Source: Bacilli bacterium (GTDB lineage Bacteria; Bacillota_I; Bacilli_A; RF39; UBA660). From it: a stretch of 64,000 nucleotides of DNA. The position numbers and the translations under genes are program-made. Below the pieces are notes generated by a model, which saw only the letters and a program-made list of their open reading frames with translations, did not search any database and was not told the origin of the DNA. Location: NCBI GenBank assembly GCA_051872415.1, contig JBJEDW010000042.1:56850-120849 (forward strand). Reading direction: 5' to 3'. Shown here piece after piece: positions 160 to 50,606 of this stretch. How positions within the stretch are numbered: the first letter of the stretch is position 1; every line of letters begins with the position of its first letter.

Positions 160-810
160 CTACATTAGTCTTGTTCTCAGTCTTGTTAAAATTTGTTTTT
201 CTTGTCTTGAAACTTTTACTTGATTTATTCCTAACTCTTTTGATAATTCACTTTGAGTTAATCCTTCTTCATAACGTTTTAGAATTAAATTTCTGTCATA
301 TTCATTTAGATTATCAAGTTCTCTTTTTAAATCAAGTATTTCTTCATTGTAAGCATTTTCTGTATACCCTAGTTTGTCATAAATTTTTAACTCTTCTTCA
401 TTTTCACTATCTAGACTTGCTACTAGAAAATTTGCTTCTTTTGCTTCTTCCAAAAGTTTTACATCTATTTCTAGGAATAATGCTATGTCAATATCACTAG
501 GAATGTATCCTAGTTTTTGAGTTAAAGAATCCCTTGTTTTTTCTACTTTTGTATTTAGTTTTACTAATTCTCTACTAACTTTTAAAACATTTGATTTTCT
601 TATATATTCTTTTACTTTACCGAGGACGTAGAAATAAGCGAAGGAAGAAAACTTAGTGTTTTTATCACTTTTATAGTTTTCATAAGCATCTAAAAGTCCC
701 ATCATACCTACTTGATATAAATCATCTTTGTCAAAATAATAAGTATATTTGTTAATTATGGAATAAACTATTTTTTCATTATCTAACAGAATTTGTGTTT
801 TATCATTCAT
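160..810 (-). CDS. sigF: Sporulation sigma factor SigF-like (sigma-70 family group 3), 216 aa
   Basis: Regions 2 to 4 align to SigF, e.g. INQVKVSRQEKQILTRLR versus ISQVQVSRLEKKILKQIK. Start overlaps the stop of the upstream STAS gene. spoVAC follows. Confidence 0.7.
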   Translation of the reverse strand: MNDKTQILLDNEKIVYSIINKYTYYFDKDDLYQVGMMGLLDAYENYKSDKNTKFSSFAYFYVLGKVKEYIRKSNVLKVSRELVKLNTKVEKTRDSLTQKLGYIPSDIDIALFLEIDVKLLEEAKEANFLVASLDSENEEELKIYDKLGYTENAYNEEILDLKRELDNLNEYDRNLILKRYEEGLTQSELSKELGINQVKVSRQEKQILTRLRTRLM

Positions 811-1142
811 ATATTTATTATTTCATAAGCAGTTACTTCTTCATTTACTTGATATAAATTTTCTGTTAGAATGTTATTTTTATCGAATAGTTTATTTATT
901 CCACAAATAATTAGTTTACCTTTGTTATTGACAATTTGTTTATAACTATTTTGAATTGCTTCTAGACCATAATTATCTATATAATCTAGTTTTTTTAAAT
1001 TTAAAAGAACATATTTAATTCCATTATCCTTTATTACCATTTCTAAGTCACTTTTAAGTAAGTTTACTGTATCTCCATTTAAAATTCCTTTTAAACGAAC
1101 CATTAAAATTCCCTGTTTAAATTCCATGTCTATGTCTAACAT
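807..1142 (-). CDS. spoIIAA: Anti-sigma factor antagonist (STAS domain, SpoIIAA-like)
   Basis: 111 aa. STAS fold with a phosphorylatable-Ser context (YIDNYGLEAI). Immediately upstream of the sigma gene. Confidence 0.75.
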   Translation of the reverse strand: MLDIDMEFKQGILMVRLKGILNGDTVNLLKSDLEMVIKDNGIKYVLLNLKKLDYIDNYGLEAIQNSYKQIVNNKGKLIICGINKLFDKNNILTENLYQVNEEVTAYEIINI

Positions 1143-1402
1143 TTTATTTGCTCCTTTTAAATTTATTTTTATTACTTATTTATAAGTATTAAAACTATAA
1201 CAAATGAAAAAGGAATTTTATGTCGATTTTTAAGATTGGAGTGTCATTTTACATTTTTATACTACTTATACGAAAAAAATAAAAGATGGGGTGATTTAAA
1301 ATCACAAAATAAACTACTAAAATATTTATTACAACATAAAAAACCTTTTCATATATATAATTACCTCAAAAATATATATGACCTAGGTTTTTGAAAATTT
1401 TT

Positions 1403-2131
1403 TTATTTTTTATTTAATTCATATAAAATTATGCTTGTAGCTACTGCTACATTAAGACTTTCTACGTTATTTGTTTTTATATGAACACTTTTCTCAACTT
1501 GTTTTTTTATTTTTTCACTTACTCCATTTGATTCATTTCCCATGATTACACAGAAATTATCTTTTGGAATTTCTGTTATATCTTCTCCAGTATTTACATC
1601 TGTTTTATATATATTTATATTTAGTTTTTTTAAGTTATTTATTGCTTCTTCTAAATCTTCTGTTATGATGTTTACTTTAAATATAGCTCCTTCAGTTGCC
1701 CTTATTGTTTTTTCGTTATAGACGTCACAACAGTCTTCGGATAAAATTATAGTATCTATATCAAATGCTGAAGCACTTCTTATAATTGTTCCAAGGTTTC
1801 CTGGATCACTTACTTTATCAAGCATTAAGTATCTTTTTCCAATGTATTCTAGGTTTTCTTTTTTTGTTGCTATACCTAAGATTTTTGATGTGTTAACACT
1901 TTTTATTTTATCCATTACTTTAGAAGTTACCTCGTAAATAGGACAATCAAGTTTTAAAGAAATATTTTCATTTTCTAATATATAAACTTCTTCTAAACGA
2001 TTTTCAAGATAAGCTTCTTCTATTAGATTTTCTGTTTCTATGATGAATTTATTTTCGATATTGCGGTATTTTTTTTGTTTTAGTTTAACGATTTCTTTTA
2101 TTTTTTTATTGTCTGTACTTGTTATTAACAT
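1403..2131 (-). CDS. TrmH/SpoU family RNA 2'-O-methyltransferase
   Basis: SpoU methylase motifs GNLGTIIRSA, GNESNGVS and LNVAVATSIILYE. Confidence 0.8.
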   Translation of the reverse strand: MLITSTDNKKIKEIVKLKQKKYRNIENKFIIETENLIEEAYLENRLEEVYILENENISLKLDCPIYEVTSKVMDKIKSVNTSKILGIATKKENLEYIGKRYLMLDKVSDPGNLGTIIRSASAFDIDTIILSEDCCDVYNEKTIRATEGAIFKVNIITEDLEEAINNLKKLNINIYKTDVNTGEDITEIPKDNFCVIMGNESNGVSEKIKKQVEKSVHIKTNNVESLNVAVATSIILYELNKK

Positions 2132-2308
2132 ATATTCTCCTTTTTATATTCTGCTACTTTTACTATTTTTTAGTAAATATTCATTTAGATAACTATAATC
2201 ATGTCCAACAATGAAATTTTAAGTTTTATGATATTTTTTAATATTTCGATCTATTAATATGTAATTAAAATGCAATCGCAACTATATTATAAGCTTTTAT
2301 TTAAATTA

Positions 2309-2779
2309 CTATTTTTCAGAATTACTATATACATTTCCATTTTCATCCATTGTATAACCATTTTCACTTTCACATATTTTATTCAATTTTAATGGTTTTT
2401 CAAAACTAACTTTAACAGAATAATCCCAAACATTTCCTTGTTCAATCTCACCAGAAACACTATCATCAAAACTAAAGTATGCTTCTAAATAATTATCTCC
2501 ATTTTCTCCCCCGGAAGTTTGATATATATTACCTTCAATATTACTATCAAATTCAACAGGTACGAAACATCCCTTAATTTCTCCGCCTTCTAAATTCAAC
2601 TCATAAGCATGTTTACCTTTGACAATAGGTATTTCCTGTCCAAAAACAGATAAACTTTCAAGTTTAGGTTCTTTGTAGTGTTCATATAAAAAATAGCCAG
2701 TAATTGCAAGAGCAATAACCACTAAAAGTAATATAGGATAAATATAATTGAACTTTTTATTTCGTTTTTTCTTAGCCAT
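2309..2779 (-). CDS. Hypothetical membrane-anchored protein
   Basis: Basic N-terminus followed by one TM helix. No recognisable domain. Confidence 0.5.
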   Translation of the reverse strand: MAKKKRNKKFNYIYPILLLVVIALAITGYFLYEHYKEPKLESLSVFGQEIPIVKGKHAYELNLEGGEIKGCFVPVEFDSNIEGNIYQTSGGENGDNYLEAYFSFDDSVSGEIEQGNVWDYSVKVSFEKPLKLNKICESENGYTMDENGNVYSNSEK

Positions 2780-2877
2780 AATAACACCTCGCTATAATTA
2801 TATAATAAAAGCATAAGAAATTCAATCATATGCATCTTGAATTTCTTTTTTAAACAAGAGAATAAAATTATAAATCC

Positions 2878-3516
2878 TTATACATTTTTCATCTCTTTTT
2901 TTATTTGTTTATAATTTGGAACATATTTTTCTACTAAAGTCCAAAAATCTTTGGAATGATTTGGATGCTTTAAGTGACATAATTCATGATAAATAACGTA
3001 GATTAGATATTTTGGATTTAGTTTTATTAGTTCTAAATTTAAGGTTATGGTTTTATTTGTTATATTACATACTCCCCATTTACCTTTCATTTTTCTTATT
3101 TTTAGAAGTGGTTTATATTTTGCTTCCTTAAAATTTTGAAAACAAGAATTGTAATAGTTTTCAAATACTTCTATAGCGTTTTTTTTGTACCAATTATCAA
3201 TATTTACGTTTTTTCCTATTAAGGCTTTTTCATCTCCAAGAAAAATTTTTCTTTCATTTATGTAGCAAATATCATAAAGTTTTCCTAGGTACTGAAATTT
3301 GTCCTTTTTTTTTGCTAAGACTTCTTCTTTTTGGATAATTACTTTTGAGATATAATCTATGTTACTTTCAACAAATTTTTGTATTTTCTTTTCGCTTATT
3401 TTTAATGGTGCGGTTACTACTATTTTTAAGTCATCTTTTATTCTAAGATACATGTTTTTATTGTTTTTATATATTATTTCTACGTTGTAGATTTTATTAT
3501 TTATTTTTATATTCAT
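2878..3516 (-). CDS. YgjP-like metal-dependent hydrolase (DUF45 / M48 family)
   Basis: HELCHLKHPNHSKDFW motif typical of the YgjP/DUF45 family. Confidence 0.75.
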   Translation of the reverse strand: MNIKINNKIYNVEIIYKNNKNMYLRIKDDLKIVVTAPLKISEKKIQKFVESNIDYISKVIIQKEEVLAKKKDKFQYLGKLYDICYINERKIFLGDEKALIGKNVNIDNWYKKNAIEVFENYYNSCFQNFKEAKYKPLLKIRKMKGKWGVCNITNKTITLNLELIKLNPKYLIYVIYHELCHLKHPNHSKDFWTLVEKYVPNYKQIKKEMKNV

Positions 3517-5140: not shown

Positions 5141-5959
5141 TTATTTATTAATTATTTGAGTTAATTCGTTATAGAAATATTCCACATCAATGATATGTTT
5201 TGTTATAGTTTCCTCATCTTCATTGAAAGAAATTGTTTGCTTTATAATTAAATCATTATTATCATAAAAAACGTTTAACACTCTAGTAGTACAAAAATTA
5301 TTTATAATACTTTGCACATAAGGATTATTCAAATCTATAAATTGTTTGAATCCTACGAAACGATATTCTAATATATTAAATACTCCAACCCATCTTGTTT
5401 GGGGAGGATCACTCCACAAATCGATTTCTTTTGTTTGAATTTCATAATTTGTTAAATGGCATCTATAATTTGGAAAAGAAATATCAAATCTAAATTTCTT
5501 GCGATGAAACTTATCTTTTTCATCAATTCTTCTAGTCATAGTTTTTCTTTCAATAGTAAATGAATCTTGATATTTGCTGTAACATATTTTTTTATAAATT
5601 TTATATTCATGCAATGGTTTAAAAGCGTAAAATATAATTATAAATATCATACCTATTATAAAGGAAGTTACGAATATAATAGCTAATTTTTCATATTTTC
5701 CATCAGTAGATGAAATAGTTCCAACGTTTATTGTTCTAATTCCTATGAATGTTGCAACTATTATCATTAAAAGAAAAAACACTATAACCATTCTAGATTT
5801 TTTTTCGTAATCTATACTTCCATGTAACGATTTATATTGTTCTGGATTTTTTTGTTTTGACATTTTATTAAATTTATATTCTGCTTTAAAGTATACTATC
5901 GCTCCAATTATCATAAATACTATAATAATAAGATAAATTCCCATATTAAAATATTTCAT
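5141..5959 (-). CDS. Hypothetical integral membrane protein
   Basis: Several hydrophobic helices, no known domain. Sits between ruvA and tdk. Confidence 0.5.
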   Translation of the reverse strand: MKYFNMGIYLIIIVFMIIGAIVYFKAEYKFNKMSKQKNPEQYKSLHGSIDYEKKSRMVIVFFLLMIIVATFIGIRTINVGTISSTDGKYEKLAIIFVTSFIIGMIFIIIFYAFKPLHEYKIYKKICYSKYQDSFTIERKTMTRRIDEKDKFHRKKFRFDISFPNYRCHLTNYEIQTKEIDLWSDPPQTRWVGVFNILEYRFVGFKQFIDLNNPYVQSIINNFCTTRVLNVFYDNNDLIIKQTISFNEDEETITKHIIDVEYFYNELTQIINK

Positions 5960-6875: not shown

Positions 6876-7121
6876 CTATTTTATATAATCATCTAAATTA
6901 TCAGGTACTTTATCTTGCATAATTGTATTTATTATTTTATCTTCTTTTTCTTTAGGAACTTCTTTACCTGTCAAAATACTAATTTGCTTTATTACATCTC
7001 TTAAAGCATCTTCATTTTTCATATTATCATCTTGTAATTTTTCTGCCAAAGAAAGAATTGTATCTTTATCAACGCTTGTCTTTTTCTCTACTTTTTTAAA
7101 AAAGTTATCACTTAATCTCAA
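6876..7121 (-). CDS. Hypothetical small acidic protein
   Basis: 81-aa ORF upstream of der, no domain recognised. Confidence 0.45.
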   Translation of the reverse strand: MRLSDNFFKKVEKKTSVDKDTILSLAEKLQDDNMKNEDALRDVIKQISILTGKEVPKEKEDKIINTIMQDKVPDNLDDYIK

Positions 7122-8573: not shown

Positions 8574-8963
8574 TTATCCTTGATAGGTTGCTTCTCCAAA
8601 TGCTAATATTGGATAAGCAATTATCGGCAAGAATACTGCTAACACTGCAAAACCTGTATCTTTTCCAAATGCTTTAGCAAGTTTAATTGGTATTAAAATT
8701 GAATATACTAGAGCCGCAAACGGAACAAATAACATAATAAGAATATGCCACCATTCTAACTTGATCACTCTTAGCATCACTACTATATTGTAGATTGGCA
8801 CAATAGCTGCCCATCCAGGTTGACCAGCTTTCTTATAAATCATCCAAATTGTTATAATTAAGAAAACTGTTACTGCAAGTGATGATACCCAAAAACCTGC
8901 ACCAAGAACTGCAAATGGATTGTCTGTAGTAGTCGCAGTTACATCGTAATAAGTATAATCCAT
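8574..8963 (-). CDS. Small integral membrane protein
   Basis: 129 aa with 3-4 TM helices and a conserved PGWAAIVPIYN stretch. Confidence 0.5.
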   Translation of the reverse strand: MDYTYYDVTATTTDNPFAVLGAGFWVSSLAVTVFLIITIWMIYKKAGQPGWAAIVPIYNIVVMLRVIKLEWWHILIMLFVPFAALVYSILIPIKLAKAFGKDTGFAVLAVFLPIIAYPILAFGEATYQG

Positions 8964-9036: not shown

Positions 9037-9627
9037 TTATTTATTTCTTTGAAAAACACTTAAAAATTTTGAAAACTCAAATAATATTTCATTCGCGTTG
9101 TTGATTGCAATTGTTTTTCCAAAAGCTTTTCCTCCAATTGTAAGCGCTGAAATAATACTTGTTGTAATTATTGTTACAATTACTGTGTTTATTCCAATAA
9201 GTGTTGCTAATTTTATGCTTATTGCAAGACCACAACTACCACTTACAACGCCACAGATATCCCCGATTACATCGTTTAAAAATGATGAAACTTTATCTTT
9301 TTGATTTATTAGTTTTATAGCTTGTTTTGCGCCATTTACTTTTTTAGTAGCCATCGAGTGAAATATTTTATCATCTGCTGTTGCAACAGATAGTCCTATT
9401 GCATCGAATATTACTCCAATAAATATGAACATTAATACCAAAAATATTGATACTGCTATAAAAGTGTTTGGAATGATTAATTCACTTATTAAAGATAAGC
9501 AAAATGATATTATAAAAGATATAATTGTTATTGTAAGTAACCATTTTGTATCTGCTTCTTTATTTTTCTTTTTATCTTGTTTTTTTGGCTCTTTGGTATA
9601 TTTTTCTTTGAACTGTTTTATTTTCAT
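9037..9627 (-). CDS. Multi-pass membrane protein, 196 aa; possibly OLE-associated protein OapA
   Basis: About 21 kDa with 4 predicted TM helices. Lies directly downstream, on the same strand, of a ~620-bp structured non-coding region. Confidence 0.5.
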   Translation of the reverse strand: MKIKQFKEKYTKEPKKQDKKKNKEADTKWLLTITIISFIISFCLSLISELIIPNTFIAVSIFLVLMFIFIGVIFDAIGLSVATADDKIFHSMATKKVNGAKQAIKLINQKDKVSSFLNDVIGDICGVVSGSCGLAISIKLATLIGINTVIVTIITTSIISALTIGGKAFGKTIAINNANEILFEFSKFLSVFQRNK

Positions 9628-9649
9628 TTGTTTTAAAGTTCCTCCTTAA

Positions 9650-10270
9650 TACGATTTTATCATAGTTTTTTCTAAGAAAAAAGACCAATATGGTCTTCCT
9701 ATAAAATGGCTAATCTATAGTTAACTTTACGTCTTAGGTCAAGTTGGATTTCCCTATTTCTTACTTTGCCGTTACCAGCAGAGCAGTTCCCTTTTAAAAG
9801 AAACAGTAGTATGTTACCATAGCTACGACTTGATTACCACTTAGTACGCACTGCAATCCTATAAATTATCACTCTAGGGGTTTTCCCCTCTGACAAGTTT
9901 GGTTACTAATACTCTTTTGCAATTACAGTTTCATATAGCAATAATTATATTTTATTGGCCAGTAAAATATAATTTGATCTATAATCCCCTGTAACCACTC
10001 AAGTCACGCTTTTATAATTATTATTTAATTATAGATTTTGCTCCTTAAATTAAGGTCTTAGTGAAAGAATGGGTCGGAATCATATGCCATTATGAGCGCC
10101 CATAAATTCTAACCTTTTAGTAATCACCCCAAACTGGGCGTATGAAGCAAATACTAAAAGTTTCGCAAATTAGCTTTTTAGTGGATTTTTAGCCCCACCT
10201 TCGTAACTTTTGTCAACTAGAATAATGTACCATTTTTCTAGTGGTTTAAATTATATCACAAATGGATAAA
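9650..10270 (-). ncRNA. Large structured non-coding RNA candidate (OLE-like?)
   Basis: About 620 bp with no ORF on either strand. Locally elevated GC, e.g. gccgttaccagcagagcagttccc and gggtcggaatcatatgccattatgagcgcccat. Positioned exactly upstream of a small membrane-protein gene. Confidence 0.35.
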
Positions 10271-10274
10271 AAAA

Positions 10275-10724
10275 TCAAGATTTTCTGTAAATAATTAATT
10301 GTCCTGGTAATAAGTAAATGCTGTTGTTACTATATATTACATCTGCTGAAGGAGCTTTAAAAAACTCTGATACAGTTTCTATAGTATCTCCTGTTTTAGT
10401 AATATATAATTTTACATCTTGTTTTGGTATTAAAATTGTTTGTCCTTCGTATATGTATTCATCTTTATCTAAGCCATTTACTCCTAAAAGTATATCTAAT
10501 GAAATATTATTATTTTTTGCTATTTCATAAAGATTATCCCCTTTTTTTACTACATAATAATTAAATATGTTATATAACCCTGTAGGAATCGTTAAACTTT
10601 CCCCCTCTCTTAATGTATAAGGAGCTTTTAAATTATTAGCTTTTACTATTTCAATTACAGGAATATTATATTTTCTACCTATACTTTCAACAGTATCTCC
10701 TTTTTCCACAATATATATGTCCAT
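10275..10724 (-). CDS. LysM peptidoglycan-binding protein (3 LysM repeats)
   Basis: Three repeats of the type YIVEKGDTVESIGRKYNIPVIEIVKANNL. Confidence 0.8.
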   Translation of the reverse strand: MDIYIVEKGDTVESIGRKYNIPVIEIVKANNLKAPYTLREGESLTIPTGLYNIFNYYVVKKGDNLYEIAKNNNISLDILLGVNGLDKDEYIYEGQTILIPKQDVKLYITKTGDTIETVSEFFKAPSADVIYSNNSIYLLPGQLIIYRKS

Positions 10725-10844: not shown

Positions 10845-11437
10845 AAATTTTCTAATACGCCATTTTCCAAGTCATCAATGTTATACATTGTTTCTAGCTC
10901 GTTAAATGTTTCTTCCAAATTCTTTCTAGCACTATTCCAACCAGTACCATCAGTAAACCAGATAAATGTTACTCCATCAACTTTTTTAGATTCTTAGGCT
11001 AACATTTTATAACTTCTTGCAGTTTCATTTAGTTTAGAACCTTGTGTAGCATAAAAATTTGTTTCAATAACATAGACTTGATTTTTAGTTTTGATAACAA
11101 AATCAAATCTTTTAGTGGATACATTATTCCAGACATAGCACTTAAATCTAAATTCCATTTTTCTTCAATATCTTTTAAATACATTTCTTTAAAATAAGTT
11201 TTGCCTTTAACAAACCCTGCCTTAATTATGTAGGATTCAACTAAGTTTTCCATTAAATCTCCACCACGACTTTTTCTTGCATGAGAATCCAATCCTACTT
11301 CAATGCCCAAAACATAGTCATATAAATTATTTATAATATGATTTTGTAATAAATCAAATAATCCACTTTCATTCATAAATTTAATGTAATCTTTCATTGA
11401 ATATACCATTTCATCAAACTTAAATAAATATTCTTTT
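10845..11437 (-). pseudogene. dpnB: DpnII/MboI-type restriction endonuclease (R.DpnII-like) remnant: N-terminal ~120 codons deleted and at least two frameshifts
   Basis: ESGLFDLLQNHIINNLYDYVLGIEVGLDSHARKSRGGDLMENLV matches R.DpnII. Homology continues in other frames (NVSTKRFDFVIKTKNQVYVIETNFYATQGSKLNETARSYK, then VTFIWFTDGTGWNSARKNLEETF...). Confidence 0.75.
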
Positions 11438-11800
11438 CCAAGTTATATTATTTATTATTTTGAATCCTTCTTGTTCTAATGCCATACCTATTGAATAAAT
11501 ATTATGCATTGTTCCACTTATCCAAATGGTACCATTATCTTTTAATGCATGATAACATAGTTTAATCCATTTTCTATTAAATTTATGTTTTTCATCTATA
11601 CTAATAGATTTATCCCAATCACCTTTATTTACTGATACCATTTTTCCACCACTACAAGATATTCCATCACTAGACAAAAAATAAGGAGGGTCTGCGAATA
11701 TCATATCAATACTCTTAGGTTCTAACCTCTTAAGTATTTTAAATGAATCGCCTTGTATAAGTTTAAAATCTTTATCCTCATAATAATACTTCTTACTCAT
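11420..11800 (-). pseudogene. dpnA: DpnA-type (M.DpnII 2) N6-adenine DNA methyltransferase, truncated after ~125 codons
   Basis: IFADPPYF and GDWDK..NGTIWISG..IYSIGMALEQEGFKIINNITW match DpnA, then the reading frame ends. The 3' half is replaced by dpnB-derived sequence, consistent with an internal deletion. Confidence 0.7.
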
Positions 11801-11834
11801 ACATTACCCTCCTATATATACTATATATCATTTA

Positions 11835-12686
11835 TTACTCAAATTCCTTATTATTTTCAAAATTTGTTATAATTACTTCTTCTACTTTACCTCGTCTTTT
11901 TCCATCTGAATTAATATTTCTTTTTGCTTCAATTACATGAATATTAAAATCTTTATATAATTCATTTATTAAAGTTGTGTTGTGATTAGAAAGCATAACA
12001 TAACATCCTTTATCAGATAATTCTTTAAATACTTTAGCAAGTCTTTTTTGCTGTTCTTTTCCAAAACCATCTTCAGTATAACTATTAAATGTTGATGTAT
12101 CTGAATCATAAGGTGGATCAAAATAAATAAAATCTCCTTTTTTGGCAGACTTTACTGCTTCTTCAAAATCAACTGATAATAACTCAATGTCATTATAGTT
12201 TAAATACCCACATATAATACCTAAATTTTGTCCTTCATAGGTATTAACCTTATTTTTTTTACCAAATGGTACATTAAATTCATTTTTACTATTAACTCTA
12301 TATAAACCGTTAAAACATGCTTTGTTTAAATAAATAGTTCTTGCTGCTCTTTTGTAATCTGCAAGTTTACTAAATTTTTTCTTATCTCTATCAAGATTTC
12401 TAATTTCATAATAATATTCTTCTGAATGTTCAGCCTCGTGACGATTTAATTCTCTACACATTAAATCAAATTTTTTACTATCTTTAATACATTCATACAC
12501 ATTCATAAGTTCCTTATTAGAATCATTTATAACTGCCCTTTTAGGTGATAATTCAAAAAGTAATGCGCCACCACCTATAAATGGTTCATAATAAGTGTTA
12601 AATTCATCTGGAACATATTGTTTCAATTTATCTATTATTTGCCTTTTTCCCCCAGCCCATTTTACAAATGGTTTTCCTTTAATCAT
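11835..12686 (-). CDS. dpnM: Dam-family GATC N6-adenine DNA methyltransferase (DpnM-like)
   Basis: MIKGKPFVKWAGGKRQI, FIGGGA and DPPY motifs of the D12-class Dam MTase. Intact 283 aa. Confidence 0.85.
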   Translation of the reverse strand: MIKGKPFVKWAGGKRQIIDKLKQYVPDEFNTYYEPFIGGGALLFELSPKRAVINDSNKELMNVYECIKDSKKFDLMCRELNRHEAEHSEEYYYEIRNLDRDKKKFSKLADYKRAARTIYLNKACFNGLYRVNSKNEFNVPFGKKNKVNTYEGQNLGIICGYLNYNDIELLSVDFEEAVKSAKKGDFIYFDPPYDSDTSTFNSYTEDGFGKEQQKRLAKVFKELSDKGCYVMLSNHNTTLINELYKDFNIHVIEAKRNINSDGKRRGKVEEVIITNFENNKEFE

Positions 12687-12869: not shown

Positions 12870-12956
12870 ATGAAAAAAGGAGTATATAATTACTCCATAT
12901 AGATAGCCAATCTATTTTTTGAATTAAATGAAAGTTCACTATAAGTTATTAGTTTT
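12870..12956. repeat. 87-bp direct repeat, copy 2 (authentic 3' end of 12890..14119 plus its terminator)
   Basis: See copy 1. Hairpin GGAGTAATTATATACTCC + TTTTTT immediately after the stop codon on the minus strand. Confidence 0.8.
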
Positions 12957-14119
12957 CTTAAACCTTCTTTAAAATCATATGAGTAAAGATTATCTTCACT
13001 TATAAAATATAATGTATCTTTTACTAAAGTAAAATCTGATATTTCTTTATTAAATAGAAGAACTTTTGTTTTGTTATTTATATTATAGTAATAAACATCA
13101 TTATTTTTTGTTTGATAGTAATAAGTATCTTCTGCGCTCTGAAGATAATTTATGCTAGTATTTTTTTCTATTTGTGATATATAATCTTTCATAGTTTTAA
13201 ATTTTAATTCTTCATCTCTAAAGTCGTAGACACTTTTTGTTTCAAATTTTAAATTATAGAAAAGTGCCCCATCTTCTTTATTTCCTACTTCTTTTATTTT
13301 CTTACCTTTTTTAGATATTTTGTACTGTTTTAATTCATCTTTATCAAAGATATATACTTCATCTTCTATTACTCCATTTATGTAAGAATCTTTGGAAATT
13401 TTATATTTTAATTTTCTTTGTTTCACTTTATTTTTTGTCATATCAATAACATATAATTCATCATAATCATATTTTTGATCATAATTTGGTATCAAATAGT
13501 ATTTATCAATAGTTGTTCCTAAGTGATTTATGTATGTGTCATTTTCAAATAATTTTATTTGTTCTAGTGAGTCTTTTGTTATAGCAAAGAACCCATTATA
13601 TTTATAAATGTAAATATATGTTTTTTCTTTGATATTGTTTTGATATGCTGTTAATGTTTCAATTTGCCTGCTTTTGTTGCTTTGTTTTTCCCAAGATGGG
13701 CTATCATAACCTTGTTTTTTTAATGTTTCCACAAATGATCCTAAATATTTTTCATAGTTTGTGTAAGAGTATGATTTTTTATTTTTACTACATAAAATAT
13801 TTGTACTTTCTCCTTTTTCTATAGCAGGATAAATACAGTATAAATCATCTTTTTGATATGAATAGATTTTGTTTATTATCTCTTTTCTCTTATGAAATTC
13901 ATCTGGTATTTCGAAGGAATAAATTAAATCTTTGTTTGTTATTTTGAAGTAGTATTTTTTATTCTTATAAATTTCATTTATTTTGAATGTTTGGTTATCA
14001 TCTTTTAAGGTATATGTTACTTCATGATGAGTTTTGAATATGTATGCTATTAGTTCAAAAATTAGTACTAGGACAAATATTCCTATTAATAGTTTGATAA
14101 CTTTTTTCATGTACTTCAC
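12890..14119 (-). CDS. Hypothetical exported/membrane-anchored protein (409 aa)
   Basis: N-terminal TM helix, Tyr/Lys-rich, no known domain. Confidence 0.5.
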   Translation of the reverse strand: MKYMKKVIKLLIGIFVLVLIFELIAYIFKTHHEVTYTLKDDNQTFKINEIYKNKKYYFKITNKDLIYSFEIPDEFHKRKEIINKIYSYQKDDLYCIYPAIEKGESTNILCSKNKKSYSYTNYEKYLGSFVETLKKQGYDSPSWEKQSNKSRQIETLTAYQNNIKEKTYIYIYKYNGFFAITKDSLEQIKLFENDTYINHLGTTIDKYYLIPNYDQKYDYDELYVIDMTKNKVKQRKLKYKISKDSYINGVIEDEVYIFDKDELKQYKISKKGKKIKEVGNKEDGALFYNLKFETKSVYDFRDEELKFKTMKDYISQIEKNTSINYLQSAEDTYYYQTKNNDVYYYNINNKTKVLLFNKEISDFTLVKDTLYFISEDNLYSYDFKEGLRKLITYSELSFNSKNRLAIYME

Positions 14120-15581: not shown

Positions 15582-15655
15582 GCGGATGTAGTTTAATGGT
15601 AGAACCTCAGCCTTCCAAGCTGACTACGGGAGTTCGATTCTCCTCATCCGCTCCA
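15582..15655 (+). tRNA. tRNA-Gly (anticodon TCC)
   Basis: GCGGATGTAGTTTAATGGTAGAAC...CTTCCAAG anticodon loop...GGGAGTTCGATTCTCCTCATCCGCTCCA. Cloverleaf and encoded CCA. Confidence 0.9.
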
Positions 15656-15762: not shown

Positions 15763-16584
15763 TTAAATCGTTACTGTTTCCATATTTACTAAATAATCTT
15801 TAATTTTATCAATTACCTCATCTATATTTTTATCTAACCAATTATATTTTGGATTATTAAGATTTATTTTGTATAGTCTTGAATCAGCAATTTTTTCAAA
15901 TTGATTTATTAAATCTTTTATATTATTAATATTAATTGATTTATCATCATAAATCAAAATTTTAAAACATTTTTCAAGTTTTTCCTTATTAAGTAGTTTA
16001 TTATCTATTAAATAATAAAAATCAAATATATCTTTATATCTAGTTGATCAAATATTAAATTTTAAAAGAGATTTCATTTTTTCGGTAAAAACTTGTTCTG
16101 GAGAATTAATTAATAAATTGGCTCCTAGATTAATTATACTAAAATCAAACATATATTGTTCTTGTTCAAGTTCAAATAAATTATGAACTCCAATATCTAA
16201 CTTTGTATCAATTTCATTTTTGTAGTTATCTTTAATCTTTAAAAATACTCTTTTGCCTTTATAATCCTGATGATGTAATGGAATAATTTCATCTATTATT
16301 TCAAAATTAATATAATTAATAGTCTTATTTAATTCATTAATAAAATTTATAATAGAATTATCATCTAGAGAATATTTTATAAAATCCAAGTCCAAATCAC
16401 GAGTTGCTCTACGCTTATCATTTGATAGATTATGCATAACAACTTCGCCTTTAATAGTAATATTTTTAATATATTTACTATTTGCTATAGCTGTTAGTAT
16501 CAAATCTTGGGACACTTTTGAAGAAGCAAATTCATCTGAATAACCATTTTCTATGTACTTTTGTATCATTTCTTGTAAATTCAT
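15763..16584 (-). pseudogene. abiEii: AbiEii/AbiGii nucleotidyltransferase toxin, split by an in-frame TGA at 16048-16050
   Basis: The N-terminal ORF 16048..16584 carries the RATRDLDLDF NTase motif. Reading through the TGA continues in frame into ORF 15763..15957, giving about 273 aa, the normal AbiEii length. Confidence 0.6.
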
Positions 16585-50022: not shown

Positions 50023-50096
50023 TGGCAGGGGTAGCAGGAGTCGAACCCACATCAGCGGTTTTGGAGACCGTTATTCTACCATTGAACTATACCCCT
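50023..50096 (-). tRNA. tRNA-Trp (anticodon CCA)
   Basis: Minus strand AGGGGTATAGTTCAATGGTAGAAT..CTCCAAAAC..GGGTTCGACTCCTGCTACCCCTGCCA. Confidence 0.9.
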
Positions 50097-50171: not shown

Positions 50172-50606
50172 GTGATAAATATGGCAATAGTAAATTATAC
50201 AACTAAAGAAAAAGAATTACTTGCAAGAATAATGAGAGCAGAAGCACTTGGAGATGGAAATCTAGCCATGCTAATGGTTGGGAACGTTATTATAAATAGA
50301 ACAATTGCTAACTGCCTCACTTTCACAAACTTAAGAACCATAACAGATGTAGTGTATCAAAAAAATCAATTTTCTGGAATTAATTCTTCTCTTTTTGTAG
50401 GGAATCCAACAACAAAAGAATTAGAACTAGCTGAAAGAATCCTAAGAGGAGAATACTATCACCCTGCAACAAATGCCCTATGGTTTTTCAATCCAGGAAC
50501 CAATAACCCTTGTCCAACTCTCTGGTACGATCAAAGAAATTCAGGAAAATACAAAAGCCATTGTTTTTATATACCATACCCAGGTGTATGTAGACAACTT
50601 CATTAA
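50172..50606 (+). CDS. SleB/CwlJ-type cell wall hydrolase (Hydrolase_2 domain)
   Basis: LLARIMRAEALGDG...MLMVGNVIINR...VVYQKNQFSG is typical of the spore cortex-lytic catalytic domain. Confidence 0.75.
   Translation: MINMAIVNYTTKEKELLARIMRAEALGDGNLAMLMVGNVIINRTIANCLTFTNLRTITDVVYQKNQFSGINSSLFVGNPTTKELELAERILRGEYYHPATNALWFFNPGTNNPCPTLWYDQRNSGKYKSHCFYIPYPGVCRQLH

Follow-up and report, generated by a model that had tools for sequence, protein, structure and literature searches.

We report that a 64,000-nucleotide (nt) stretch of DNA from a Bacilli bacterium (GenBank assembly GCA_051872415.1, contig JBJEDW010000042.1, positions 56,850 to 120,849; hereafter the window, in whose coordinates positions are given) very probably carries an ole-oapA locus, that is, a gene for the structured OLE RNA and, downstream on the same strand, a gene for the membrane protein OapA. 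The whole window was scanned against Rfam 15 at gathering thresholds, which returned three matches: OLE (RF01071) and two tRNAs. The OLE match runs on the minus strand from 10249 to 9690, covers model positions 1-616 without truncation and scores 317.4 bits (E = 1.6e-89; gathering score of the model, 50). The search with the OLE covariance model (CM) that had been suggested as a check for this region thus gave a significant match over the full length of the model. A permissive scan of positions 9550-10350 (E-values up to 1) found OLE again, together with one 25-bit sub-threshold match to a eukaryotic small nucleolar RNA, which we take as chance. The locus is of an already known type, an unremarkable if slightly trimmed representative of its family, and nothing in the evidence contradicts the identification of OLE and OapA.

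An ole-oapA pair had been put forward for this region by the original prediction, which was made from the sequence and a list of its open reading frames (ORFs), and the proposal is supported by the Rfam match and by the hallmarks of OapA described below. The gap between the start of oapA (9627) and the stop of the LysM gene upstream of it (10275) measures 647 bp. The ORFs of at least 30 amino acids (aa) that touch this gap are one of 38 aa (9572..9688, minus strand), one of 31 aa (9899..9994, plus strand) and the tail of an antisense one of 74 aa (9425..9649, plus strand), which reaches into the intergenic stretch up to 9649; the claim that no ORF exceeds 40 codons on either strand holds over approximately 625 bp. 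The co-directional downstream gene for a 196-aa polytopic membrane protein is present as described, and the range 9037-10270 first given for the locus spans both ole and oapA, with the promoter reaching 10278. Two further claims stood in part. The GC enrichment is real relative to the whole 64-kb window (33.9% in the OLE segment versus 26.5%), to oapA (26.7%) and to the LysM gene (25.6%), but it is modest: the DUF5684 gene is equally GC-rich (34.9%), and 1.6% of all 560-nt windows are as GC-rich as the OLE segment or more so (standard deviation (sd) 3.35%; OLE approximately +2.2 sd). Likewise, the expected RNA of approximately 600 nt is indeed an OLE RNA, but in a shortened form whose 560-nt match falls below the canonical size. 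The locus comprises the following features.

10250..10278, minus strand: ole promoter, with -35 box TTGATT (10278-10273), 17-nt spacer and extended -10 element TGaTATAAT (10258-10250)
9690..10249, minus strand: OLE RNA gene, taken as the extent of the RF01071 match, 560 nt
9675..9698, minus strand: terminator-like hairpin, GAAGACCA-UAU-UGGUCUUU, an 8-bp fold followed by a U run
9641..9647, minus strand: oapA ribosome-binding site AAGGAGG, seen in the sequence itself 13 nt ahead of the start ATG
9037..9627, minus strand: oapA, 196 aa, 21.5 kDa, isoelectric point 9.6, starting 63 nt past the end of the OLE match

To evaluate the fold, the window RNA was aligned with 19 related OLE RNAs. The resulting 20-sequence alignment has 186 invariant columns, and RNAalifold predicted 134 base pairs on it, 78 of which show at least one compensatory double change. 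The prediction recovered the Rfam helices and added three long-range helices that are unpaired in Rfam; going by the descriptions in PMC12265935 and PMC12286853, these three presumably correspond to P1, P2 and P3. Paired cells amounted to 96.4%, compared with 84.9 +/- 0.4% in shuffled alignments and 37-44% when the structure was slid by 1-3 columns. Pairs with double changes numbered 78, compared with 43 +/- 3.3 and 19-26, respectively, and the observed values were not attained in any of 500 shuffles. Because one alignment served both to predict the structure and to count pairs, the paired-cell measure is inflated; a conserved fold can nonetheless be concluded safely, since the pair-type measures bear it out and the independent Rfam structure agrees. 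Substitutions in the alignment track base pairs, not codons. These comparisons support an OLE fold maintained by compensatory substitutions.

The elements of this fold are listed below, from the closing helices through the 5' domain to the 3' domain; helix names P1-P15 are those that best fit the text of PMC12286853, PMC12265935, PMC9723947 and PMC7936274, the name P4 being our assignment from the first two of these.

10237-10229 with 9710-9702 (3' strand, GCCAUUUUA), minus strand: P1, which closes the whole RNA; 7 of 9 pairs covary
10224-10217 (UAUUCUAG) with 9877-9870 (CUAGAGUG), minus strand: P2, which includes a CUAG palindrome
10207-10203 with 9906-9902, minus strand: P3, a long-range helix from RNAalifold
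10180..10199, minus strand: P4 hairpin with loop CUAAAAAU; 3 of 5 pairs covary
10115..10159, minus strand: long P5/P5.1 hairpin with invariant loop ACGCCCAGU (GCCCA); 18 pairs, 8 of them with double changes
10063..10109, minus strand: P6 hairpin with conserved loop AAUGGCAU
10041..10057, minus strand: miniaturised P7, GACCUUAAUUUAAGGAG, 17 nt that fold as a 5-bp hairpin
10013..10034, minus strand: miniaturised P8, CUAUAAUUAAAUAAUAAUUAUA, A-U pairs only, folding as an 8-bp hairpin; the stem scores poorly in the Rfam match
9911..10004, minus strand: long P9-P9.3 arm, with terminal-loop palindrome GGCC at 9960-9957
9888-9878, minus strand: P10 hairpin, GGGGAAAACCCC, after which the 3' strand of P2 comes next
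9715..9864, minus strand: 3' domain (domain 2, P12-P15), from the Rfam match, the alignment and RNAalifold
9826-9806, minus strand: P13, with GUAA tetraloop and one-nucleotide bulge; 8 of 8 pairs covary
9784-9763, minus strand: P14.1, with GUAA tetraloop
within 9715..9864, minus strand: P15, GGGAAAUCC

All conserved blocks of OLE are found in the window copy, namely L4 (CUAAAAAU), L5 (GCCCA), L6 (AAUGGCAU), those of P9 (CUUGAGUG...UGAAAC...UGCAAAAGAG) and P10 (GGAAAAC-CCUAGAGUG) and the domain 2 blocks, and across the alignment they are invariant or almost so. The long-range helix P2 was predicted independently by RNAalifold, with 99.4% of cells paired. OapA-binding sites have been located in P2 and P4a (PMC12054373, PMC12265935), and the CUAG palindrome of P2 lies within such a region. 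L4 forms the A-A helix dimer bridge B1 in cryo-electron microscopy (cryo-EM) structures, and the L9.3 kissing loop is dimer bridge B3 of the cryo-EM model, for which covariation of the palindrome has been reported (PMC12286853). Wherever this loop is kept in our alignment (columns 351-354), its tetranucleotide is palindromic: GGCC in the window clade and in the related loci L007, L014 and L023, and GUAC in most others. As both are palindromes, the pattern fits an intermolecular kissing loop and agrees with PMC12286853. One relative (L029; OLE RNA at 2450-2992, 398 bits) is missing the distal part of P9 (P9.1-P9.3, approximately 46 alignment columns) and with it the L9.3 kissing loop. The binding site of OapB consists of a GNRA loop plus bulge in P13 (PMC7936274), and a P13 GNRA tetraloop and bulge of this type are kept in the window OLE.

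Next we considered the 196-aa protein. At the thresholds used, neither Pfam nor NCBIfam gave a match to an OapA family or, in the case of NCBIfam, to any family, and the protein was therefore tested by the published defining features of OapA, i.e. a size of 21 kDa, four transmembrane (TM) helices, a conserved positively charged cluster, a DxxxD motif and distant kinship with CNNM proteins (PMC12265935, PMC12054373, PMC11332333). Hydropathy and an AlphaFold2 model agree on TM helices at residues 27-54, 57-83, 110-144 and 148-176; the model consists of four long helices (mean predicted local distance difference test score 79.3, predicted template-modelling score 0.69). Positive charge is found in the Lys-rich N-terminus (12 Lys/Arg in residues 1-28) and in the loop 84-118 (7 Lys/Arg). 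Residues 119-123, DVIGD, supply the DxxxD motif. When 45 OapA homologues are aligned, down to 57% identity, 38 columns are invariant; N118, D119, V120, G122 and I124-V127 (I124-C125-G126-V127) do not vary, while at I121 and D123 conservation is at least 90% (among 15 homologues, D123 does not vary either).

The relation to CNNM proteins is distant. Pfam returned a sub-threshold match to CNNM (PF01595; 26.1 bits versus a gathering cutoff of 28.4) and three weak DUF matches driven by hydrophobic segments; no other Pfam domain, CBS and CorC_HlyC included, passed E = 0.01. As its score stays below the cutoff, the protein is not filed as a member of the CNNM family. The near miss fits the finding that a PF01595 search places the OapA proteins as the closest cluster after MpfA, the predicted OapA fold superposing on CorB 7M1U (PMC11332333). 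When the model was compared with the PDB by Foldseek, the top four matches were the archaeal CNNM protein MtCorB (7m1t, 7m1u; probability 0.99-1.0, query-normalised TM-score 0.41-0.51), all others being at 0.18 or below. A sequence search of the PDB for a solved OapA gave none (best E = 0.64, irrelevant). The protein thus resembles CNNM/CorB/MpfA Mg2+ transporters (PF01595; 7M1T, 7M1U) in its TM fold and its weak hidden Markov model match, but differs from them in having four TM helices rather than three, in scoring below the Pfam threshold and in its DxxxD motif, which distinguishes OapA from CNNM domains (PMC11332333); it is only a distant relative of that family, as already published for OapA. 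By the same published features it is like OapA of Halalkalibacterium halodurans (e.g. BH2780), being approximately 21 kDa in size, with four TM helices, the DxxxD motif, the basic cluster and a CNNM-like fold, and encoded directly downstream of ole. The protein check suggested by the original prediction can, like that of the RNA, be counted as positive: no OapA family profile matched at the thresholds used, but size, TM topology, DxxxD, basic cluster, near-threshold CNNM score and CorB-like fold are all found. These hallmarks, together with the conserved adjacency to OLE, support the identification of the protein as OapA. The segment TIGGKAFGK (163-171) we take, by eye, to be the counterpart of the CNNM GE..PK segment, presumably with G in place of the conserved CNNM proline, whose absence is a mark of OapA.

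We then asked how constantly the two genes are paired. A scan of a genome collection with the OapA alignment yielded 595 loci. Among the best 80 of these 595, from which labels and habitats were taken, all are uncultured gut or rumen metagenome-assembled genomes (MAGs), most of which go under the labels Bacilli, Mollicutes, Tenericutes or Erysipelotrichaceae. MAG labels are unreliable: for some relatives the label is Muribaculaceae or Bacteroidaceae, and that of one relative, 'Candidatus Scybalousia', led to an inconsistent placement in Bacteroidales. OLE was found upstream of the OapA homologue and on the same strand in 37 of the 39 distinct loci scanned with Rfam, immediately adjacent in 35. 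In the remaining two (L024 and L032; OapA approximately 52-53% identical), no Rfam OLE match was obtained within 3 kb upstream, ole being either displaced further away or lost. In L014 (879-3000) and L036 (1993-3000), 1-2 kb are inserted between ole and oapA; the L014 insert carries an R.Pab1-like restriction endonuclease (2192-2950, plus strand) and an ORF of 409 aa that weakly matches a DNA methylase (917-2146, minus strand).

The ole gene of the window appears to form a transcription unit of its own. The promoter was found by a consensus scan (10/12 with TG) and its sequence also read directly; its -35 box TTGATT overlaps the stop codon of the LysM gene, and transcription would start near 10244-10242. 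The same arrangement, cTTGATTttttt...TGtGnTATAAT, precedes OLE in L002-L007 and L014, and a TATAAT box lies ahead of OLE in nearly all other relatives. The terminator-like hairpin starts four nt past the 3' strand of P1, between ole and oapA. A consensus terminator scan found nothing; the hairpin was recognised by folding and from the relatives, in which its stems covary (GACCA/UGGUC, GGACAU/AUGUCC, GGAC/GUCC, GAGC/GCUC, each followed by T6-8). Because these stem changes are compensatory, we read the hairpin at 9698-9675 as an intrinsic terminator or a 3'-end-forming hairpin. The primary transcript would then probably extend from approximately 10243 to approximately 9675, i.e. over some 565 nt. 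Just past the terminator, at 9662-9654, lies a weak extended -10 element, TGaTAAAAT; as a speculation, oapA might be expressed from it or by read-through. In more distant relatives the OLE 3' end comes to within 4-27 nt of the oapA ribosome-binding site.

The window RNA has a trimmed periphery. The distal part of P7, which takes up 33 nt in the Rfam model (positions 204-236), is reduced to 2 nt, and a small hairpin at Rfam positions 424-436 is absent from the window RNA and from all 19 aligned relatives. With P7 and P8 vestigial and this hairpin missing, the full P1-P15 stem set is not present; such an incomplete set falls within the published range of variants (PMC11332333) and is thus compatible with membership in the OLE family. 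Compared with full-length OLE RNAs (H. halodurans, Clostridium acetobutylicum, C. botulinum), the window RNA has the same architecture of P1-P3, P4-P10 and P12-P15, the same loops (CUAAAAAU, GCCCA, AAUGGCAU, the GGCC kissing loop and the P13 and P14.1 GNRA loops) and oapA immediately downstream. It differs from them in its length (560 nt versus approximately 577-610 nt), its 17-nt P7 hairpin and A-U-only P8, the lack of the 424-436 hairpin, altered J4a/5, J6/7 and P4a sequences, a GC content of 34% and a promoter and terminator of its own.

Among relatives of the window locus, this reduction is graded and specific to the clade. Those with OapA 47-64% identical have long P7 and P8 stems and OLE scores of 337-414 bits, a P7 of 30-60 nt being kept in L007-L029. 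Vestigial P7 and P8 stems are found in the window, L001, L003 and L006 (297-317 bits), and P7 is lost in L002, whose RNA measures 531 nt, L004 and L005 (275-287 bits). Two variant classes have been described (Fernando & Breaker 2024, PMC11332333): variant 1 (TANB77), with short P7, P8 and P9 and often without the OapB site, and variant 2 (RF39), without P7 and P8. The window copy is similar to these variants in its origin from an uncultured low-GC gut MAG lineage, its reduced P7 and P8 and its lowered CM score, and its nearest relatives L002, L004 and L005, without any P7, are similar to variant 2. Unlike either variant, it keeps vestigial P7 and P8 stems, a complete P9-P9.3 arm and a P13 in which the GNRA tetraloop and the bulge persist, which places it between the published categories, a placement made by stem comparison; the categories themselves are defined by bit score with the model of those authors, in bins of at least 390, 310-390 and 235-310 bits.

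Taken together, the relatives might form a series in which a single family-level clade of gut Bacilli sheds P7 and P8 stepwise, beginning with full stems (L007, L011, L014), passing through vestigial ones (window, L001, L003, L006) and ending with the absence of P7 (L002, L004, L005), with OapA, L4 and L9.3 and the private promoter and terminator kept throughout; if the trimmed RNAs are functional, they would represent a natural minimal OLE core. We advance this tentatively, rating its chances at somewhat less than even. The trimmed copy retains the dimerisation loops L4 and L9.3, the P5 and P6 loops and the P13 and P14.1 GNRA tetraloops. If the proposal were true, the contribution of L7 to dimer bridge B2 and the canonical J6/7 partner of the kink-turn (k-turn) would be dispensable. 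OapB and OapC are largely missing from reduced-genome gut clades (PMC11332333), a scarcity that points in the same direction.

Several observations count against the ole-oapA reading without contradicting it. The Rfam score of the window RNA is among the lowest of 38 OLE matches (range 275-438 bits), which we attribute to the shrunken P7 and P8. The terminator is weak, having three G-C pairs, and escaped the consensus scan. J4a/5 and J6/7 form the k-turn bound by OapC and bS21 (PMC9723947, PMC12054373, PMC12286853); in the window J4a/5 reads GCGAAAC versus GUGAAGC in more distant relatives, and J6/7 reads CACUAAGACC versus CGUGGAGACC, and UAAUUU stands where the Rfam consensus has the AUCGAU palindrome of P4a. 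Some protein contacts may therefore differ. Finally, any account of how the OLE ribonucleoprotein (RNP) works is borrowed and incomplete, its biochemical function not being established in the literature.

Some features could be taken as signs of decay, the RNA being an OLE relic that has lost its function and is on its way to elimination from a reduced genome: P7 and P8 have shrunk, a small hairpin is missing, the clade has the lowest scores seen (275-317 bits), the k-turn and P4a sequences are altered, and rare, apparently defective ole genes have been mentioned (PMC11332333). We consider this very unlikely. The conserved blocks outside P7 and P8 are intact and compensatory pairing is kept within the clade; the promoter and the terminator are conserved, the latter with covariation; and the adjacent oapA is intact, with its 38 invariant columns. 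The defective copies in the literature, moreover, are from organisms without OapA.

Even less probable is that the RNA works purely in cis, as a long 5' leader (a riboswitch or attenuator, for instance) through which oapA is controlled, and has no role in trans. Its position directly upstream of oapA on the same strand, the terminator-like hairpin between the two and the short distance of the OLE 3' end from the oapA ribosome-binding site in more distant relatives would all suit a leader. The RNA is, however, an unambiguous member of a family of stable and abundant RNAs that form an RNP with OapA, OapB, OapC and bS21 as well as RNA dimers (PMC12265935, PMC12286853), and the permissive Rfam scan matched no riboswitch family. 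Furthermore, the inserts between ole and oapA in L014 (a restriction-modification pair) and L036 show that ole can exist apart from oapA.

Another large structured RNA (tmRNA, RNase P RNA, 6S RNA or similar) or a degraded protein-coding gene, for which a stretch of approximately 560 nt with raised GC and no ORF might have spoken, has a negligible probability, given that no such Rfam family was matched at gathering threshold or at E-values up to 1 and that substitutions follow base pairing. The original prediction had judged tmRNA and RNase P RNA not to fit, and this is borne out: no tmRNA was found in the window by ARAGORN or Rfam and no RNase P RNA by Rfam, and both are ruled out since the Rfam scans yielded OLE and no rival family.

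For the working of the ole-oapA locus, we propose a model in which expression, RNA-protein binding, membrane localisation, dimerisation and physiological role are carried over from the OLE RNAs of H. halodurans and clostridia (PMC12265935, PMC10898510, PMC11332333, PMC12286853). A sigma-70-type promoter overlapping the LysM stop would drive the transcript of approximately 565 nt, in which P1-P3 would close the molecule, the 5' domain P4-P10 would come next and then the 3' domain P12-P15, and which would end at the short hairpin and its U tract. Read-through, or the weak extended -10 element after the terminator, would reach oapA, whose four-helix product would be a CNNM-like subunit resembling a putative divalent-cation transporter. 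According to Block et al. 2011, as cited in PMC12265935, OapA binding to OLE RNA is cooperative (at least 2:1), and the membrane localisation of the RNA requires OapA; by analogy, OapA dimers may bind the window RNA and anchor it at the membrane or possibly across it. The window OLE has both bridge loops, the A-rich L4 and L9.3 with its GGCC palindrome, and the RNA may dimerise through loop-loop bridges at both. The particle might then aid adaptation to cold, short-chain alcohols, excess Mg2+ and poor carbon sources, as in the organisms studied.

The locus serves as a clean positive control, as an ole-oapA pair was correctly recognised from raw sequence alone. It also adds one more OLE instance, probably an unannotated one: an OapA identical to the window copy is deposited at NCBI as a hypothetical protein of 'MAG: Bacilli bacterium'. 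The findings support the published picture in which reduced-genome gut lineages keep OLE and OapA and trim the peripheral stems; trimmed OLE variants have already been reported in such lineages, and a specialist would not be surprised. The graded reduction of P7 and P8 and the compact, self-contained transcription unit could guide the choice of a minimal OLE construct for studies of structure or function.

The gene order shared by close relatives is aminotransferase, RNHCP, 409-aa ORF, LysM, ole, oapA, DUF5684, der, SpoVIF, ruvA, tdk, ruvB. This order differs from the usual ole neighbourhood of isoprenoid, recombination and division genes, and the flanking genes scanned did not show the eclectic set of ole neighbours plotted in PMC12265935. 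Among 30 further flanking or small ORFs of the window, to which the search was confined, none encodes OapB (KOW/SBB) or OapC (L7Ae-type YbxF); going by the correlations published in PMC11332333, the genome would be expected to lack OapB, OapC and MpfA. Directly downstream of oapA, a DUF5684 membrane protein (8574-8963, minus strand) is preceded by a strong promoter-like site, TAGACA-17-TATAAT (9015-8987); it adjoins oapA only in the closest relatives (L002, L003, L006, L084-L086).

Between the 409-aa ORF and the LysM gene lies a degraded DpnII-type restriction-modification cassette (11029-12686, minus strand). Its D12-class Dam methyltransferase (11835-12686) is intact, but the other two parts are fragments of 126 aa each, one from an N6_N4 methyltransferase (11420-11800; Pfam profile positions 1-82 of 221) and one from the DpnII endonuclease (11029-11409; profile positions 101-185 of 278). 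The fragments recur in two independent assemblies (L081, L082), and the cassette is absent at this place from the Hadza-gut relatives L084-L086. Restriction-modification genes therefore adjoin ole in two separate lineages, that of the window and that of L014.

The original prediction had described the host as an anaerobic spore-forming Firmicute; it looks like a member of an uncultured low-GC gut Bacilli lineage, putatively of GTDB order RF39, and less like a classical extremophile. The window contains no rRNA gene. Its sporulation-type genes include SpoVIF (6876-7121), and a SleB-type cell-wall hydrolase domain is encoded at 50172-50606. At 160-1142 (minus strand), a SpoIIAA-like STAS anti-sigma-factor antagonist (807-1142) overlaps by 4 nt a divergent, SigF-like sigma factor of the SigB/SigF/SigG family (160-810; 148.7 bits, under the subfamily cutoff of 234), with no gene for a SpoIIAB-type anti-sigma kinase between the two. 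Together these genes hint at a retained but divergent sporulation programme.

Elsewhere in the window, ORFs of 409 aa (12890-14119), 272 aa (5141-5959) and 156 aa (2309-2779), all on the minus strand, have no Pfam or NCBIfam match; the first of these is syntenic upstream of LysM-ole in close relatives. The two tRNA genes are those for tRNA-Gly(UCC) (15582-15655, plus strand) and tRNA-Trp(CCA) (50023-50096, minus strand), and an ORF at 16048-16584 (minus strand) carries an AbiEii-type toxin domain (type IV toxin-antitoxin nucleotidyltransferase).

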